Origin: Candidatus Moraniibacteriota bacterium
GTDB taxonomy: Bacteria; Patescibacteriota; Minisyncoccia; Moranbacterales; GCA-2747515
Reading direction: 5' to 3'
NCBI GenBank assembly: GCA_046116545.1
Contig: CP175956.1
Location: forward strand, 897,734 to 961,733
Length of the DNA: 64,000 nucleotides
This document shows, piece by piece, positions 30,655 through 59,177 of the stretch. The notes beneath the pieces were generated by a model. That model was given only the letters and a program-made list of their open reading frames with translations, had not been told where the DNA came from and did no database searches. Numbering within the stretch: the first letter of the stretch is position 1; each line of letters begins with the position of its first letter. A program made the position numbers and the translations under genes.

Positions 30655-30727
30655 GGGCCAGTAGCTCATCTGGTAGAGCGCCTCACTTGCACTGAGGAGG
30701 TAGCGGGTTCAAGTCCTGTCTGGTCCA
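30655..30727 (+). tRNA. tRNA-Ala (anticodon TGC)
   Basis: Cloverleaf GGGCCAG...CTGGTCC with a G3:U70 pair and anticodon loop CTTGCAC. No CCA is encoded. Confidence 0.85.
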
Positions 30728-30759
30728 CAACTTCACAATGCACAATAAAAAAATATTAA

Positions 30760-30833
30760 GGGCGATTAGCTCAGCTGGTTAGAGCGCGTCACTGATAATG
30801 ACGAGGTCCGAGGTTCAAGTCCCCGATCGCCCA
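30760..30833 (+). tRNA. tRNA-Ile (anticodon GAT)
   Basis: GGGCGAT acceptor, anticodon loop CTGATAA, T-loop GGTTCAAGTCC. Confidence 0.85.
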
Positions 30834-30837
30834 CATA

Positions 30838-52579: not shown

Positions 52580-54328
52580 ATGAATAACATAAAAAAGTCT
52601 GACAAATTAATATTACAATCAATACTCATTTTGGTGATTTCTCTTGCATGGATAACATTTCTTTCAGCTTTGCTTGGTATTTTTTATGGAACCTTTATTT
52701 GGGGATTTTTTGCATTACTTACTATATTTTTTTATAAACAAAAAATTATAACATTTAGCAAACCTTCTCAAAACTTCTTGACTTATATACTTATTTCACT
52801 AAGCTTTGCTCTTCTTATTGCTTTTTTTACTACCCCTTCTATATTTTCTGGTAGAGACCAAGGCTCATTATCTGATGCTGCCATATTACTTTCTGAACAT
52901 CATAATTTAATATCTCACTCAACACAAAGTGACATATTTTTTAATATAAATGAAAAAGGAAAGGCTCTTAATTTTCCAGGATTTTTTTATACAATTGATG
53001 GTGGGCTTATTACACAATTTCCAATTCCCTATATAGCATTCATCAGTGTATTTTTCGGTACATTCGGCACAGCTGGTTTTGTCGTAGCTAATGCAATATT
53101 ATTGTTTACCTTCATCTTAGCAATTACTGGCGTTACTGCTTTTTACATGAATCGAAACTACACATTAATATTTTTAATAACTCTTTTATCATCATTCTCT
53201 ATAGGATGGTTTGCGAAGTATACTTTGAGTGAAAATATCGCAAGCGCATTGATTTGGAGTTCTCTATTTCTATATATATTTCTCAAAGAGTCAAAAAATC
53301 AAATTACCTATTTTGCACTGATTTCAATGATTTCTCTATTACTGTTCACAAGAATTGAAGGGATTTGGTTTTTTGTTATTTTTAGTTTTTTACTACTAAA
53401 AAATAAGAACTCCAAAAAATTTATAGGAAAAGACTTATGGTGGCGAGCGATATTTCCAGTAACAACGCTTTTTGTTATTTTTTGTACTGTACTTATAGTA
53501 AATAATCCCTTTTATATAACAATGATAAAAGCGTTCTTGAATTCTGGAACAGGATCTTCTGGAATAACACTATTTGATAAAATATCTTACAATTTTTACA
53601 TTTATTCAATTTATGGATTAATTCTTCCGCTATTCTTTACATTAATTGCAAGTATTATTTCATTCAAACAAAAAAGAATGAGACTCGCATTACTACCCAT
53701 AGCTATAATGTTTCCACTTTTTCTATATTATCTTTTTCCTCAAATAAGTGGTGATCATCCTTGGATGCTTCGCAGATTTGTATCAGCGCTTTTACCAGCA
53801 ACTATTTTAATAAGCATTTTATTATCATATTACATAAAACCCAAAAATATATATTATAAAATTTTTAAATATGCAATCCCTGTTGTAATAATATTAGCTA
53901 ACATTCCATCTCTTATTTTATTTTTAACTTATTCAGAAAACATTAACTTGCAATCCCAAATACATGATATATCACAAAATTTTAGAGAAAATGATTTAGT
54001 CCTAGTAGATGGAACTGCAACTGGAGACGGATGGTCAATGATGACCTCTCAATTAAATAATTTGGAAAATAAAAATGCTGTTTATTTTTTCAACATTGCA
54101 GACTTAGACAAATTAGATTTAACAGCTTACGAGAAAGTATTCTTAATAACTCCCAATACTAATAAAGAATTCTATAGTAAAATTAACAATAGATTTAGTT
54201 ATGTAAATAAATACACGCTCACGACACAAAGACTACTAACTCCTGATAAAAAAATATTTCCACATAAATTTCCAAAAAAAGAAAATGAAAATATATACGG
54301 AACTATTTATGAAATAAACTTAAACTAA
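52580..54328 (+). CDS. Polytopic membrane protein, GT-C-fold glycosyltransferase-like
   Basis: More than 12 TM helices, an early loop motif SGRDQGS, and a C-terminal soluble domain. Confidence 0.45.
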   Translation: MNNIKKSDKLILQSILILVISLAWITFLSALLGIFYGTFIWGFFALLTIFFYKQKIITFSKPSQNFLTYILISLSFALLIAFFTTPSIFSGRDQGSLSDAAILLSEHHNLISHSTQSDIFFNINEKGKALNFPGFFYTIDGGLITQFPIPYIAFISVFFGTFGTAGFVVANAILLFTFILAITGVTAFYMNRNYTLIFLITLLSSFSIGWFAKYTLSENIASALIWSSLFLYIFLKESKNQITYFALISMISLLLFTRIEGIWFFVIFSFLLLKNKNSKKFIGKDLWWRAIFPVTTLFVIFCTVLIVNNPFYITMIKAFLNSGTGSSGITLFDKISYNFYIYSIYGLILPLFFTLIASIISFKQKRMRLALLPIAIMFPLFLYYLFPQISGDHPWMLRRFVSALLPATILISILLSYYIKPKNIYYKIFKYAIPVVIILANIPSLILFLTYSENINLQSQIHDISQNFRENDLVLVDGTATGDGWSMMTSQLNNLENKNAVYFFNIADLDKLDLTAYEKVFLITPNTNKEFYSKINNRFSYVNKYTLTTQRLLTPDKKIFPHKFPKKENENIYGTIYEINLN

Positions 54329-55419
54329 TGTTTGATATTACAAAATACATACAATTAGATACACACAAACAACAAAAGATATATTTCATACTACGAATTT
54401 CAATATTTGCAGGATTCTTATTATTATTTCTTATACTATCAAAAGAAATGATTTTTCCTACTTATAAATTTAATTTCAATGCTGCAATAGATTCACTTGC
54501 TAACACTATTTCACGTCCATACGAAACTGAAAATGGGACTAGTTTTCATTTGTCCAGCAGCACGCAATTAGATGCTATCAAAGTTACATTAACTCTTCCA
54601 AAAGACTTGGATAAACTTCCAAAAAATACATCACTATTTGTAAAAAAATCATACCTATCTTTTTTGACACCCATCAACAAAGAAAAATATAATTATACCT
54701 ATAAAACATATGACCTGACAGATGAATGGTTCATAAATAAAGATGCTTCCATTTATAAATTTATAAGTAAAAATACTTTTGACTCTTATTTATTTAAAGA
54801 CAATACATCTTTTTCTAGTAAAACAATAATTGATAATTTATCGAATATAGATAAGACTACTGGATTTTCTTCAGCAACACTTATTTCTTCAGATGATAGT
54901 GTATTTGTAATAGTTGGTGATAAAAAACATCCAATTCATGATGAAGCCACATTTAAATTATTTGGATATAATTTTGATAATGTTATAAAATCAACTAGCG
55001 AAGAACGGGCTCTTTATACAAAAGGAAAATTATTTACTACTTCTAGTGCACATCCATCAGGAACTATTTTTTATGCTGAAGATACTGACAGAACTTTTAT
55101 ATTTGATAATTCATTATTGAATAAAATTCAAACAACTGATATATCGTCACAACATTCGATAGTTGTACAAGAGCAATCACGTACAACTTCTGACTCTTGT
55201 GTATTACAAAAAACATTACTTCCTAGACAATATTCTTGCACAATACAATTAGATAACACCTCCGATTTTAATGGTAACATTTATCAATTTACATTAAACG
55301 ACTCCCCTAATACAAAAATAGAATTAGCTGAAATTAAATTACATACAAAAGTAAGTGAACAATCCCTAGTTGATAGAATTGTTTCTCTTAAGAAAAAAAT
55401 TGGTTTACATTATAATTAA
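54328..55419 (+). CDS. N-terminally anchored extracytoplasmic protein (hypothetical)
   Basis: A single N-terminal TM helix. Its start overlaps the stop of the upstream gene. Confidence 0.4.
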   Translation: MFDITKYIQLDTHKQQKIYFILRISIFAGFLLLFLILSKEMIFPTYKFNFNAAIDSLANTISRPYETENGTSFHLSSSTQLDAIKVTLTLPKDLDKLPKNTSLFVKKSYLSFLTPINKEKYNYTYKTYDLTDEWFINKDASIYKFISKNTFDSYLFKDNTSFSSKTIIDNLSNIDKTTGFSSATLISSDDSVFVIVGDKKHPIHDEATFKLFGYNFDNVIKSTSEERALYTKGKLFTTSSAHPSGTIFYAEDTDRTFIFDNSLLNKIQTTDISSQHSIVVQEQSRTTSDSCVLQKTLLPRQYSCTIQLDNTSDFNGNIYQFTLNDSPNTKIELAEIKLHTKVSEQSLVDRIVSLKKKIGLHYN

Positions 55420-55423
55420 CTAT

Positions 55424-55813
55424 ATGAATTATTTTAAAAAAATACACACAAGTACTATAACTTACAAAATACTCATTGATATTTTTTTTGTAATGACAGC
55501 TTTTACTTTTTTATTTTTACTTACTGAATCAATAATACCTGGGATACTAAGTGCACAAATTTCAACATTTCTTTTATTTTCTTTAATGTTTTTACTCGTT
55601 ACAACAATTTCACTTATATCCAGAAAACAAAATATATTCACAAAAACAAAAAAAACCAATACTTTTCTACTAATCATTACACTAATAATATTTGCACTAC
55701 TCATTGCACTTACTTGCATTGGGTATGGTCTAATTTATGGAATCATCATCTCAGCATTATCTATTATAATATTCTTATTGATAAGTTCGGAATTAATAAA
55801 ACACTTCAAATAA
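55424..55813 (+). CDS. Small polytopic membrane protein (hypothetical)
   Basis: The start is taken at ATG 55424 (MNYFKKIHTST...); four hydrophobic helices. Confidence 0.4.
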   Translation: MNYFKKIHTSTITYKILIDIFFVMTAFTFLFLLTESIIPGILSAQISTFLLFSLMFLLVTTISLISRKQNIFTKTKKTNTFLLIITLIIFALLIALTCIGYGLIYGIIISALSIIIFLLISSELIKHFK

Positions 55814-55965: not shown

Positions 55966-57741
55966 TTACTTTCGTAAAACTTGTAACGTTCTCCTAGTAC
56001 AATTATCCCAACTAAATTTATCAACTCTTCCATCAGCACCTTTTCTTAATCGTTCTCGCAGATCCTCATTTGAAAATATTTCATTAATACTCTCAGCACA
56101 TTGCACACTATCTCCAGCATTAAAATACAAAGCATTTTCACCAAGGATTTCTGGAATGCTCGAATTTTTCGTTGATACTACAGGAAGTCCAACTGCACAA
56201 GCTTCTAATACAGGTAATCCAAATCCTTCATACTTTGATGCAAAAACAAACACACTAGCATTTTGCATCAAAACTTTCACTTCCTCAAAATCAATATTTC
56301 CCGTAAATAGTATGTCATTGCTATATTTACACTTCTCTGCATATGCATGTATGTCTTCACTCATCCATCCATCCCCACCAACTAATACTAACTTCAATAT
56401 TTTATTTTTTTCCTTAACAATATTAAATGAATCTATTATTGTTTTGATATCTTTACGAGGTTGAATCGCTCCAACATGCATTAAAAACTCACAATTCAAT
56501 AAATCATATTTACCTAAAATCTTATCAATAACTTCTTTTTCATATTCTTTCCGCCATTGATCTTTGTCTATTCCATGATGCACAACTGTAATTTTGTCAG
56601 ACTTTATACTTGGATAAAATTTTAATATATCATTTCTAGTGGCCTTTGATACAGCAATTATGCTATCAGAATTTTTTACTGCATAATCAGTTTGAATATT
56701 AAGCCTTCTTAAATCTTTTTTTAGAAATGTATTTGGAAATATTTTAAATGCAAGATCATGAATTGTTACAACTACTTTAGTTTTTTTACTCCGAACCCTA
56801 CATACATTATGAAGCGGCATCCATACAACATCAGGATTTTTTATAAGAATTTCAAAAGCAAACATCGTTTGTGTCCACATTGGAATATTCTTCAACTTCT
56901 TAATAATATAATTCGTATATTTTTTTGGACTTAATTTATTATTAAATTTATTTTTGTGATAAATATAAAACTTATCCTCCTTTGCTTTTTCACCAAACCT
57001 ATCTAAAACTTCTTTCAAATATACACGTGTTCCATCTATTCTACTTTCATCTAACTCAGAAGCATGTACAGCTATATCCATGCAGAATTCATCAATACTG
57101 TTGCTTGATTCTAAAGTAAAATCTCCAACTCTAGTGCGTTGTAATCCACCAAGATAAGCACCTGTGCTTAAATATTTACCAATATCTCTAGCTAGTGTCC
57201 TTATATAAGTTCCCTTTCCACACACAACACTAATTCTTAAATTTGGATATTTATATTCTAATATTTTAATATTTCTTATTTCAACTACCCGTTCTTTCAT
57301 TTCAACAGTCTCTCCACGACGAGCCTTTTTATAAGCTTCTTCCCCATCTATTTTTATAGCACTATAAGCAGATGGTATTTGTGTTATATTTCCAACAAAT
57401 TCATCAATGCATTTTTTTACCTCTTCCTCATTTGGCTGTATATCCTTATTTATAACTTTTTTCTCACCCTCAGCATCATCAGTACTGCTATTCTCTCCCA
57501 AAATAATATCAGCAATGTATTCTTTTTCAGCTTTTACAATGATATCTATTTTCCTAGTATATTCACGTCCAACTGCCATCACCAAAACACCACTAGCCAA
57601 CGGGTCTAATGTTCCAGCATGTCCAACTTTAATTTTTTTATTTCCAGTCTTTCGCCTAGCCCAATACTTCACTATCTGCACAGCTCTCTGTGAAGTAATT
57701 CCAACTGGCTTATCAACTGCAAAAATACCCTTTACCTTCAT
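55966..57741 (-). CDS. truB: Fusion protein: tRNA pseudouridine55 synthase TruB catalytic domain plus GT4-family glycosyltransferase
   Basis: Residues 1-225 carry GHAGTLDP (catalytic Asp) and GTYIRTL. Residues about 290-591 have the Glyco_trans_4/GT1 pattern (...IHDLAF..., EGFGLPVLEA). The frame is continuous with no intervening stop. Confidence 0.7.
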   Translation of the reverse strand: MKVKGIFAVDKPVGITSQRAVQIVKYWARRKTGNKKIKVGHAGTLDPLASGVLVMAVGREYTRKIDIIVKAEKEYIADIILGENSSTDDAEGEKKVINKDIQPNEEEVKKCIDEFVGNITQIPSAYSAIKIDGEEAYKKARRGETVEMKERVVEIRNIKILEYKYPNLRISVVCGKGTYIRTLARDIGKYLSTGAYLGGLQRTRVGDFTLESSNSIDEFCMDIAVHASELDESRIDGTRVYLKEVLDRFGEKAKEDKFYIYHKNKFNNKLSPKKYTNYIIKKLKNIPMWTQTMFAFEILIKNPDVVWMPLHNVCRVRSKKTKVVVTIHDLAFKIFPNTFLKKDLRRLNIQTDYAVKNSDSIIAVSKATRNDILKFYPSIKSDKITVVHHGIDKDQWRKEYEKEVIDKILGKYDLLNCEFLMHVGAIQPRKDIKTIIDSFNIVKEKNKILKLVLVGGDGWMSEDIHAYAEKCKYSNDILFTGNIDFEEVKVLMQNASVFVFASKYEGFGLPVLEACAVGLPVVSTKNSSIPEILGENALYFNAGDSVQCAESINEIFSNEDLRERLRKGADGRVDKFSWDNCTRRTLQVLRK

Positions 57742-57747
57742 ATAATT

Positions 57748-58287
57748 TTAAAATATGAACCAATGTAATTTTTCCATAAGCAAAAAAATAGAACTAGCCA
57801 TTACTCCAAACAAAAAGAAATATCTTGACCACGCAAGCATTCTACGTTTTGGAGTATAATAATGTTTTGATAAATTAAATGCTTCCAGTGAATGTTGCTT
57901 CAACAATTCGTCCTCATCTTTTATCATCTTTTTTAACGTAATTGCATATTCATCAGCTGATTTAAACTTAGAAATTCTCGGTGCATGCAAAATACTTTCC
58001 TCATGACGATATCGCTTTGTTACAATCCTCGGCAACCGAATTGCAAGCATAGCAGCTATTACAGAGCATGCTGAAAATAAAGCTACAACACCCATCGTTA
58101 TTCTCAGAGAATCATTTTCAAACAATTTTGAAATTACAAAAATAAAAATACCTGTATTAATACCTATCATCACATTTGCATGTGTATCAACTGTATGAGT
58201 TGCATCTATAATTTTCTGACTCAAACTCTCCAAGAAACTAATTGTTAATAATCTATCATTACAATCTTCAAAATTAACTTTTTTCAT
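57748..58287 (-). CDS. Hypothetical 3-TM membrane protein, operonic with truB-GT4
   Basis: 179 aa; it lies 7 nt upstream of the truB-GT4 start. Confidence 0.4.
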   Translation of the reverse strand: MKKVNFEDCNDRLLTISFLESLSQKIIDATHTVDTHANVMIGINTGIFIFVISKLFENDSLRITMGVVALFSACSVIAAMLAIRLPRIVTKRYRHEESILHAPRISKFKSADEYAITLKKMIKDEDELLKQHSLEAFNLSKHYYTPKRRMLAWSRYFFLFGVMASSIFLLMEKLHWFIF

Positions 58288-58502: not shown

Positions 58503-59177
58503 TTATGCCGTAACACATTGATTCATGTGCTTTGTCAAACGTTCTTTATGATCCTCAGTTGTTGCAACTAATTCATGAAACAAAATATTCCACTGTCTCG
58601 CTAATGGAATATAAATTTCAATTGTTTCATTGTTTTTACGCTCAATTTTTTCAATTTTACAACTCCACAGAGTTAATTGATTATGCCATCTGTCAGGAAG
58701 TTTAATTAGAAAAACTTCTACCAATTCAACATATCTAAGATGATCATGATAAAATTTCAATTGTATTATTTTATCTCCTCCAAAATCAGCTCTTGGTCGT
58801 TTTGAAACATAATCTAATAACCATGCAACATTTGCACTGAATTCCAATTCAATGCGAGAAAGAGGCCACTCTGGACAATCTTCTGGTGTATCATGCAAAA
58901 GAGCTGCTGCCACTACCTCATGTGCTGGAATTATCAAAAACTTCAAATCAAAAATATTTAAATAATCCATCTGAATAATTGCAACGGCCCGAACATGCTC
59001 AAAATAACGTGTACCATCTTCACGTACAACATGACGAAAAGCATCTTTTGCAACATTATACGCTTTCTCAATAAATTGATATTCTTTTGAATATCTAGAA
59101 TACCGTAATTCAACACGGGCAAAAAATGTTGCTCGATTCTCACTTGCTGCAAGCATTTTCTTCATTTTCCTATTCAT
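58503..59177 (-). CDS. HD-domain protein, RelA/SpoT-type (p)ppGpp hydrolase-like
   Basis: HVRAVAII ... ALLHDTPED motifs. The start is placed at the ATG preceded by AAAGGAGGT (MNRKMKKM...). Confidence 0.55.
   Translation of the reverse strand: MNRKMKKMLAASENRATFFARVELRYSRYSKEYQFIEKAYNVAKDAFRHVVREDGTRYFEHVRAVAIIQMDYLNIFDLKFLIIPAHEVVAAALLHDTPEDCPEWPLSRIELEFSANVAWLLDYVSKRPRADFGGDKIIQLKFYHDHLRYVELVEVFLIKLPDRWHNQLTLWSCKIEKIERKNNETIEIYIPLARQWNILFHELVATTEDHKERLTKHMNQCVTA

Follow-up and report, generated by a model that had tools for sequence, protein, structure and literature searches.

The question raised by this locus is whether a single open reading frame (ORF) that joins an RNA-modifying enzyme to a sugar transferase encodes a genuine bifunctional protein, or whether it marks the loss of a stop codon between two adjacent genes. 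The ORF lies in a 64,000-nucleotide stretch of DNA with a G+C content of ~32% from a Candidatus Moraniibacteriota bacterium (GenBank assembly GCA_046116545.1, contig CP175956.1, positions 897,734 to 961,733), which is referred to here as the window. The gene occupies positions 55966 to 57741 on the minus strand, begins with ATG, and encodes 591 amino acids (aa) as one 68-kDa polypeptide, in which a TruB-type tRNA pseudouridine-55 synthase is followed by a glycosyltransferase (GT) of the GT4 type. Our preferred explanation, which we hold to be likely, is a fixed fusion of neighboring genes that gave rise to a bifunctional polypeptide with two independent activities, a tRNA pseudouridine-55 (Psi55) synthase and an envelope GT4 transferase. 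Nearly all of the uncertainty in this explanation attaches to the word "independent" and not to the reality of the fusion.

We assessed the domain content of both halves by profile and sequence searches. The TruB half comprises residues 1-220 (positions 57082 to 57741, minus strand) and scored 217.2 bits against the NCBIfam equivalog TIGR00431, which has a cutoff of 151.45 bits; residues 4-217 covered profile positions 2-208 of 210. The Pfam search placed TruB_N at residues 31-180 (E = 4.9e-47) and TruB_C_2 at residues 181-245 and returned no PUA or TruB_C match, so the minimal TruB with a GHAGTLDP motif and no PUA domain, as described in the first-pass annotation, is what the gene encodes. 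A phmmer comparison with 1sgv gave an E-value of 3e-39. The motif aligns with those of 1sgv and 8jfx, and its catalytic Asp-46 is encoded at positions 57604 to 57606 (minus strand). The fusion thus shares with other bacterial TruB enzymes (TIGR00431; 1k8w, 1r3e, and 1sgv) the same catalytic domain, including the GHxGTLDP aspartate, the histidine, tyrosine, and arginine, and the thumb loop. It differs from the Escherichia coli-type enzyme, which carries a C-terminal PUA domain where the fusion carries a 371-aa GT4 enzyme; TIGR00431 itself does not require PUA. Standalone TruBs of the lineage (221-241 aa) have the same end point as the TruB half and are also free of PUA. The closest TruBs in species-representative genomes among the matches listed (loci L007 and L008; 221-237 aa) likewise stand alone and lack PUA, so a minimal TruB appears to be normal in this lineage. 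Among the same matches, the PUA-less form is common to standalone TruBs of Moranbacteria, Bacteroidota, and Planctomycetota.

The GT half (residues 221-591 plus the stop codon; positions 55966 to 57081, minus strand) has the features of a retaining GT-B glycosyltransferase. Both Pfam lobes were detected above their cutoffs, Glyco_transf_4 (PF13439) at residues 290-394 with 51 bits and Glycos_transf_1 (PF00534) at residues 418-569 with 114 bits (E = 8e-33). The EX7E motif of the C-terminal lobe (E505...E513) is encoded at positions 56203 to 56229 on the minus strand. With the retaining GT4 enzymes BshA, MshA, GlgM, HepE, WaaG, PimA/PimB', and PglJ, it shares two Rossmann lobes, the EX7E motif, and a basic phosphate-binding pair. 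In contrast to those enzymes, to which it is only 12-21% identical, its N terminus is covalently continuous with TruB. A match to PF20706 (GT4-conflict) was limited to residues 482-538 and lay beneath the stronger Glycos_transf_1 match.

The two halves meet at positions 57079 to 57084 (minus strand), where the DNA reads gat gaa ttc TGC ATG gat ata and encodes D-E-F-C220 / M221-D-I, with neither a stop codon nor a frameshift; the peptide that spans the junction is VGDFTLESSNSIDEFCMDIAVHASELDESR. Cys-220 is the last TruB residue, and Met-221 is the former GT start. Met-1 of a standalone orthologous GT (P0052, 372 aa) aligns to Met-221, and the alignment runs to residue 590 with 49% identity. Since the GT aligns over this whole length and the junction contains no stop or frameshift, the protein is a complete PUA-less TruB and a complete GT4 enzyme, both full length and with no linker between them. 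The domain calls and the junction DNA together bear out the earlier description of one ORF running from TruB into a full GT4 without a stop.

Next, we considered the predicted structure. The AlphaFold2 model of the fusion, built from an alignment of 25 fused sequences, had a mean predicted local distance difference test score (pLDDT) of 91.5 and a predicted template modeling score (pTM) of 0.84. The junction is ordered in this model, with a helix at residues 216-219 followed immediately by the opening strand of the GT (residues 222-226). In Foldseek searches, the TruB half superposed on E. coli TruB in complex with T-arm RNA (1k8w; E = 1.9e-22, root mean square deviation of 2.2 Å over 219 columns, 32% identity) and also on human TRUB1. 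The GT half gave target-normalized TM-scores of 0.80 to BshA (6n1x and 5d00) and 0.78 to GlgM (6tvp), and further matches included MshA, HepE, WaaG, and PimA. No solved structure spanning both halves was present among the structural matches. Structure prediction had been proposed in the first-pass annotation as a way to see whether the domains are independent. The halves match separate folds, and the high pTM and the absence of a flexible linker suggest that the arrangement of the two domains in the model is fixed.

To what extent is this architecture conserved? Five contigs from independent assemblies encode a protein identical to the 591-aa fusion, and two loci, L092 (GCA_008633355.1) and L093 (JGI 3300085941), match the DNA of the window with 100% identity over 5.5 and 2.5 kb, respectively. 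Beyond these, we found 24 clusters with the same two-enzyme architecture (43-65% identity, 591-625 aa, 99-100% coverage) that derive from JGI, NCBI, ENA, and Logan assemblies of different metagenomes. Two of the fusions (P0024 and P0025) are truncated by contig ends, and locus L087 opens in frame with ...GNFTLQDAKNLKEFTMRIAIH. P0025 was considered as a possible unfused member of the clade and rejected, as its contig begins in frame within the TruB C terminus. Two other members, P0018 and P0020 (L089, 8001-9839), carry a Lys-rich insertion of 18-32 aa after the first TruB helix.

In the 25 aligned sequences, the TruB residues His-41, Asp-46, Tyr-75, and Arg-181 are invariant, as are Ser-127, Ala-128, Lys-130, Tyr-137, Lys-138, and Arg-141 of the thumb loop. 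In the GT half, Gly-237, His-328, Asp-329, Arg-429, and Lys-430 (QPRK) are invariant, together with E505-x7-E513 and, within that motif, Gly-506, Phe-507, and Gly-508. The TruB halves had a mean pairwise identity of 0.66 and the GT halves one of 0.57. The invariance of the catalytic motifs and the conservation of both halves across divergent fused sequences indicate that both are under purifying selection, and the polypeptide retains both of its active sites intact. The junction is free of insertions and deletions in 24 of the 25 sequences. At the former GT start, methionine is retained in 14 sequences and replaced in 11, by leucine in seven and by alanine, threonine, phenylalanine, or isoleucine in one each; the codon at this position is TTA in L089 and TTT in L088, neither of which is a start codon. 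As the former start methionine is so often replaced, no internal restart at Met-221 is required, and one that is conserved across the members is excluded. Taken together, the sequences indicate that the fusion is ancient and fixed and not a read error.

We then asked how the fusion arose. In typical Moranbacteria (L001-L004), the orthologous GT is a standalone gene and truB is not close by. Three further lineages, close to the fused clade, keep the two genes adjacent, separate, and co-oriented. In L090, truB (241 aa) is followed by a 114-aa ORF and the GT gene (371 aa), with a spacer of 488 nt; in L091, the order is AspRS, HD_4, truB (230 aa), 91 nt, and GT (376 aa); and in L094, it is glutaredoxin, truB (236 aa), 25 nt, and GT (374 aa). 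In all three, the GT is in the +1 frame relative to truB. The L094 TruB ends in ...SIEEFE*, which coincides with the main-clade junction ...SIDEFC|M. The intervening ORF of L090 (7544-7888) encodes an acidic protein with no family match.

Because L090, L091, and L094 keep truB and GT as adjacent but separate genes, the comparison indicates that the fusion arose through loss of the stop codon and spacer between them. The ancestor would have had a PUA-less truB of ~220 aa directly upstream of a co-oriented GT4 gene. A deletion of the truB stop codon and a short spacer, of a length equal to 1 modulo 3 (e.g. 28 nt from an L094-like arrangement), would bring the GT into frame and join the native TruB C terminus straight to the native GT methionine. 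Such a deletion would explain a protein without a linker, since the L094 TruB ends at the main-clade junction and the GT lies in the +1 frame. The alternatives posed in the first-pass annotation, a genuine bifunctional protein or a lost stop, therefore both hold, at different timescales: the stop was lost in evolution and not in the reads. The annotation had also proposed a search of related genomes for fused and separate versions. Some 24 orthologues proved to be fused, and adjacent but separate genes were found in L090, L091, and L094, more distant lineages that do not refute the fusion within the clade.

A further fused protein, P0026, comes from a genome of 56% G+C, and both of its halves pair with L091 in neighbor-joining trees. 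Its junction keeps a TruB tail and reads FQ-IRDTAQEK-RIGIH, where L091 has FM-DTAL* and then M-RIGIH. As the junctions of the main clade and of P0026 differ, P0026 probably represents a second, independent fusion, meaning that fusion would have occurred twice.

The architecture is unusual, as had been surmised from the sequence. In an exhaustive hidden Markov model search of 1.84 billion (1.84e9) representatives clustered at 50% identity, of which the best 150 matches were considered, the full architecture (positions 3-591) occurred in only two clusters, P0014, which represents the main fused clade, and P0026. The next matches were GT-only (≤489 bits) or TruB-only (P0138, 361 bits). Longer matches consisted of GT4 fused to GT2, WecG, or more GT4, and TruB was never the partner. 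A scan of genome contigs with the TruB profile listed mostly truB loci of Bacteroidota and Planctomycetota, and none of the ~78 truB loci from other phyla among the matches listed had an orthologous GT within 6 kb. These data show that the fusion is narrowly distributed, in a small sub-lineage of Candidatus Moraniibacteriota (Patescibacteria, Candidate Phyla Radiation (CPR)). Both halves are ordinary enzymes; it is the combination that is rare, and the bifunctional protein is probably ordinary in function. We found no description of a TruB-GT4 architecture in the literature searched, and the fused proteins that carry source names are annotated only as "TruB."

The present case resembles Rosetta-stone fusions of adjacent genes, reportedly described by Marcotte and by Enright in 1999 and covered in surveys of fusion and fission (e.g. 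PMC11237513), in that truB and GT stand apart in certain genomes and are joined in others. Where they are unfused, the two genes lie side by side in the same orientation, as is classic for a precursor. Most adjacent-gene fusions join steps of one pathway, whereas the partners here come from RNA modification and glycan synthesis, two processes that are not related.

The genes around the fusion offer clues to the role of the GT half. Convergent with it on the plus strand lies a trio of genes. The first (positions 52580 to 54328) encodes a 582-aa membrane protein whose AlphaFold2 model (pLDDT of 90, pTM of 0.91) matched only GT-C enzymes among its best Foldseek hits, namely ALG12, ALG9, PglB, STT3, AglB, AftA, Pmt4, and EmbB; PF13231 occurs in some of the homologues, and the first loop contains an invariant RDQG motif. 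For this protein, the first-pass description of the neighboring membrane proteins as GT-C-like is correct. The second gene (54328 to 55419) encodes a 363-aa protein with an N-terminal transmembrane (TM) segment and no Pfam match even at E ≤ 5; counterparts of 279-425 aa are encoded at the equivalent place in L001, L004, L005, L087, and L088. The third (55424 to 55813) encodes a small multi-TM protein of 129 aa with counterparts of 129-130 aa in L001, L004, L005, and L088; a lenient Pfam search returned a weak DUF5671 match only and no GtrA-family match. The GT-C gene is kept beside the GT in L001-L005, L087, and L088, whether or not the GT is fused, and the GT4 gene usually lies tail-to-tail with the trio irrespective of whether it is joined to truB or stands alone. 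The trio, for its part, always runs convergently with the GT4 gene. The trio and the GT4 enzyme probably constitute an uncharacterized and unannotated envelope glycosylation system that is widespread in Moranbacteria.

This arrangement can be compared with multicomponent transmembrane glycosylation systems, which combine a GT in the cytoplasm with a small flippase and an enzyme of the GT-C type, e.g. GtrB/GtrA/Gtr and CsbB/GtcA/YfhO (PMC8035078, PMC5836110). Like GtrB/GtrA/Gtr-type systems, the Moranbacteria cassette has a cytoplasmic GT gene conserved beside genes for a membrane enzyme with a GT-C fold and a small protein with several TM segments. Unlike in those systems, the cytoplasmic enzyme is a GT4 and not a GT2 polyprenyl-phosphate sugar synthase, no match to a GtrA-family flippase was found, and there is an extra 363-aa protein of no matched family.

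Upstream of the fusion, and on the same strand, lie two further genes. The first (57748 to 58287, minus strand) encodes a 179-aa PycTM-like membrane protein (39 bits against a Pfam cutoff of 27) and ends 6 nt ahead of the fusion start codon. The earlier proposal of an operon with this three-TM protein is plausible. The second (58503 to 59177, minus strand) encodes an HD_4 protein resembling RelA/SpoT-type HD hydrolases (Pfam, E = 2e-13) and lies upstream of truB. HD_4 genes precede either truB or the fusion in L005 (7242-7919), L088 (7239-7916), L091 (6466-7152), and L092, and thus neighbor truB both when it is separate (L091) and when it is fused. L005, L088, and L092 show synteny of the PycTM-like gene with HD_4 and the fusion; the order of the PycTM-like and HD_4 genes in the window is swapped relative to L005 and L088. 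The PycTM-like gene matched the PADLOC PycTM/2TM effector models with E-values of 1e-8 to 1e-3 (PycTM, 1e-8), and no cyclase or other defense gene was found near it. It looks like a housekeeping relative of a defense-effector membrane module. A defense-system reading, suggested by the GT4-conflict match and the PycTM neighbor, was rejected, as neither the fusion nor the HD protein had a PADLOC match and a cyclase was absent. Elsewhere, the fused gene lies in a polysaccharide cluster (L006) or, in L089, among alaS, tyrS, pheS, and gatB instead of beside the GT-C trio. Its recurrence in such different neighborhoods indicates that the fused gene is inherited as a unit.

No second truB copy was found within the 64-kb window. 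All four tRNAs of the window carry the canonical GTTC(R)A T-loop, the substrate motif of TruB. Two of them, tRNA-Ala(TGC) and tRNA-Ile(GAT), are adjacent at positions 30655 to 30834 on the plus strand, a pair that is usual for the 16S-23S spacer; Rfam detected no rRNA in the 64-kb window. The GC skew of the plus strand is strongly negative in every 2-kb bin from position 1 to 64000 (−0.08 to −0.42). The skew fits a single replichore with mostly minus-strand genes, and it shows no switch within the window and hence no origin or terminus there.

These observations allow us to propose a mode of action. The N-terminal half most likely isomerizes U55 in tRNA T-loops. The C-terminal half most likely uses an NDP-sugar as donor and glycosylates a membrane-associated acceptor, probably a polyprenyl-linked one, on the cytoplasmic face; a role in lipid-linked envelope glycosylation at this face is supported by the conservation of the GT-C trio beside the GT. 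The glycosylated acceptor would then be passed on to the adjacent GT-C enzyme and the two membrane proteins that accompany it, and these would act outside the membrane. The fusion would mainly secure co-expression and would not create a new joint chemistry. We infer both activities, the nature of the acceptor, and this main benefit of the fusion.

How does this proposal compare with its rivals? One of these holds that the genes are really separate and that a sequencing or assembly error, or a very recent stop mutation confined to this genome, has merged them in our data. The codon that precedes the GT methionine, TGC, is indeed one substitution away from TGA, and more distant relatives do have two separate genes. 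However, identical DNA has been recovered in independent assemblies, ~24 orthologues with identities down to 43% are fused at the same position, and the native C terminus of the L094 TruB already includes the residue aligned to Cys-220. We examined TGC220 as a mutated TGA stop and rejected it on the last of these grounds, as the unfused L094 protein has the aligned residue ahead of its stop. We therefore give this explanation next to no credence. Also improbable is that one half is dead or repurposed, with TruB retained only as a scaffold or chaperone for RNA or the GT only as a membrane anchor, or that an internal start at Met-221 yields a separate GT. E. coli TruB has a tRNA chaperone role that is independent of catalysis, Met-221 is kept in 14 of the 25 members, and a promoter-like match lies within the TruB half (57284-57255). 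Against this, neither half shows any change in its catalytic and substrate-binding motifs, even among sequences with as little as 43% overall identity, and the methionine column holds alanine, threonine, phenylalanine, isoleucine, or leucine in 11 of the 25. The promoter and terminator scan returned fewer promoter-like sites than shuffled sequence did (19 versus 25).

A functional coupling of the two enzymes, in which TruB docks tRNA for glycosylation by the GT4 or tRNA binding regulates envelope glycan synthesis, is unlikely, if slightly less so than a dead half or an internal start. It draws on the constancy of the truB-GT pair while the neighbors vary (glutaredoxin in L094, HD_4 in L091, aminoacyl-tRNA synthetase genes in L089, and a polysaccharide cluster in L006), on the probable occurrence of two fusions, and on the fixed interdomain arrangement that the pTM of 0.84 and the missing linker suggest. 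The GT moreover sits in the place of the tRNA-contacting PUA domain in E. coli TruB (1k8w). A junction without a linker, however, is what a simple deletion would be expected to leave. Standalone GTs of ~49% identity have no truB nearby, yet they are always accompanied by the GT-C trio (L001-L004), and the fusion partners of GT relatives are GT2, WecG, or GT4 domains; both observations point to glycan assembly. The lack of truB-GT adjacency at the ~78 other-phyla loci likewise speaks against coupling. There is a precedent for a tRNA-acting glycosyltransferase in QTMAN/GTDC1, the eukaryotic queuosine-tRNA mannosyltransferase, which uses tRNA as its acceptor (PMC11755703). This enzyme is eukaryotic and acts on queuosine at position 34 and not on the T-loop, and it was absent from the top 50 structural matches of the GT half, with no direct comparison to QTMAN made; the link of the present GT to RNA is the fusion itself only. 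In L008 (4917-6657), queA, a queuosine biosynthesis gene, lies directly upstream of a standalone truB. These bacteria may thus produce tRNA that carries queuosine, a point that bears on the speculative idea of tRNA glycosylation. The version in which the two halves form a functional unit, with TruB docking tRNA or another structured RNA that the GT glycosylates, or with tRNA occupancy gating envelope glycan synthesis, strikes us as a little more doubtful again.

Several points nevertheless weigh against our preferred explanation of a fixed fusion with two independent activities. All named GT4 subfamilies and equivalogs of NCBIfam score far under their cutoffs for the GT half (glgA_Coryne, 110 of 302 bits; BshA, 103 of 274; MshA, 62 of 462; PglJ, 68 of 500). 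The neighbor-joining support is weak: the main fused GT clade without P0026 was recovered in 55 of 100 replicates and the corresponding TruB clade in 10 of 100. The count of fusion and fission events is uncertain for this reason, and a single fusion with later fissions is a less probable alternative to the two fusions indicated by the differing junctions. Finally, truB-GT adjacency is kept in three unfused lineages with differing flanks, and fusion seemingly occurred twice. Such persistent adjacency and repeated fusion could mean selection for a functional link and not a neutral merger.

Our findings provide a natural example of the merger of adjacent genes in the reduced genomes of the CPR, with intermediates preserved in which the spacer goes from 488 to 91 to 25 nt and then to none. 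They also reveal that labels reading only "TruB" hide a glycosyltransferase, which domain-aware annotation would correct, and they bring out an unannotated envelope-glycosylation cassette of Moranbacteria that consists of a GT4, a GT-C enzyme, and two membrane proteins. If the two halves did work as a functional unit, they would represent a bacterial RNA-linked glycosylation system, whose footprint would be a conserved adjacency followed by at least two independent fusions. Should the pairing of truB and GT reflect a real link, be it RNA glycosylation or a coupling of translation capacity to the envelope, it would open a new topic in the biology of these bacteria.

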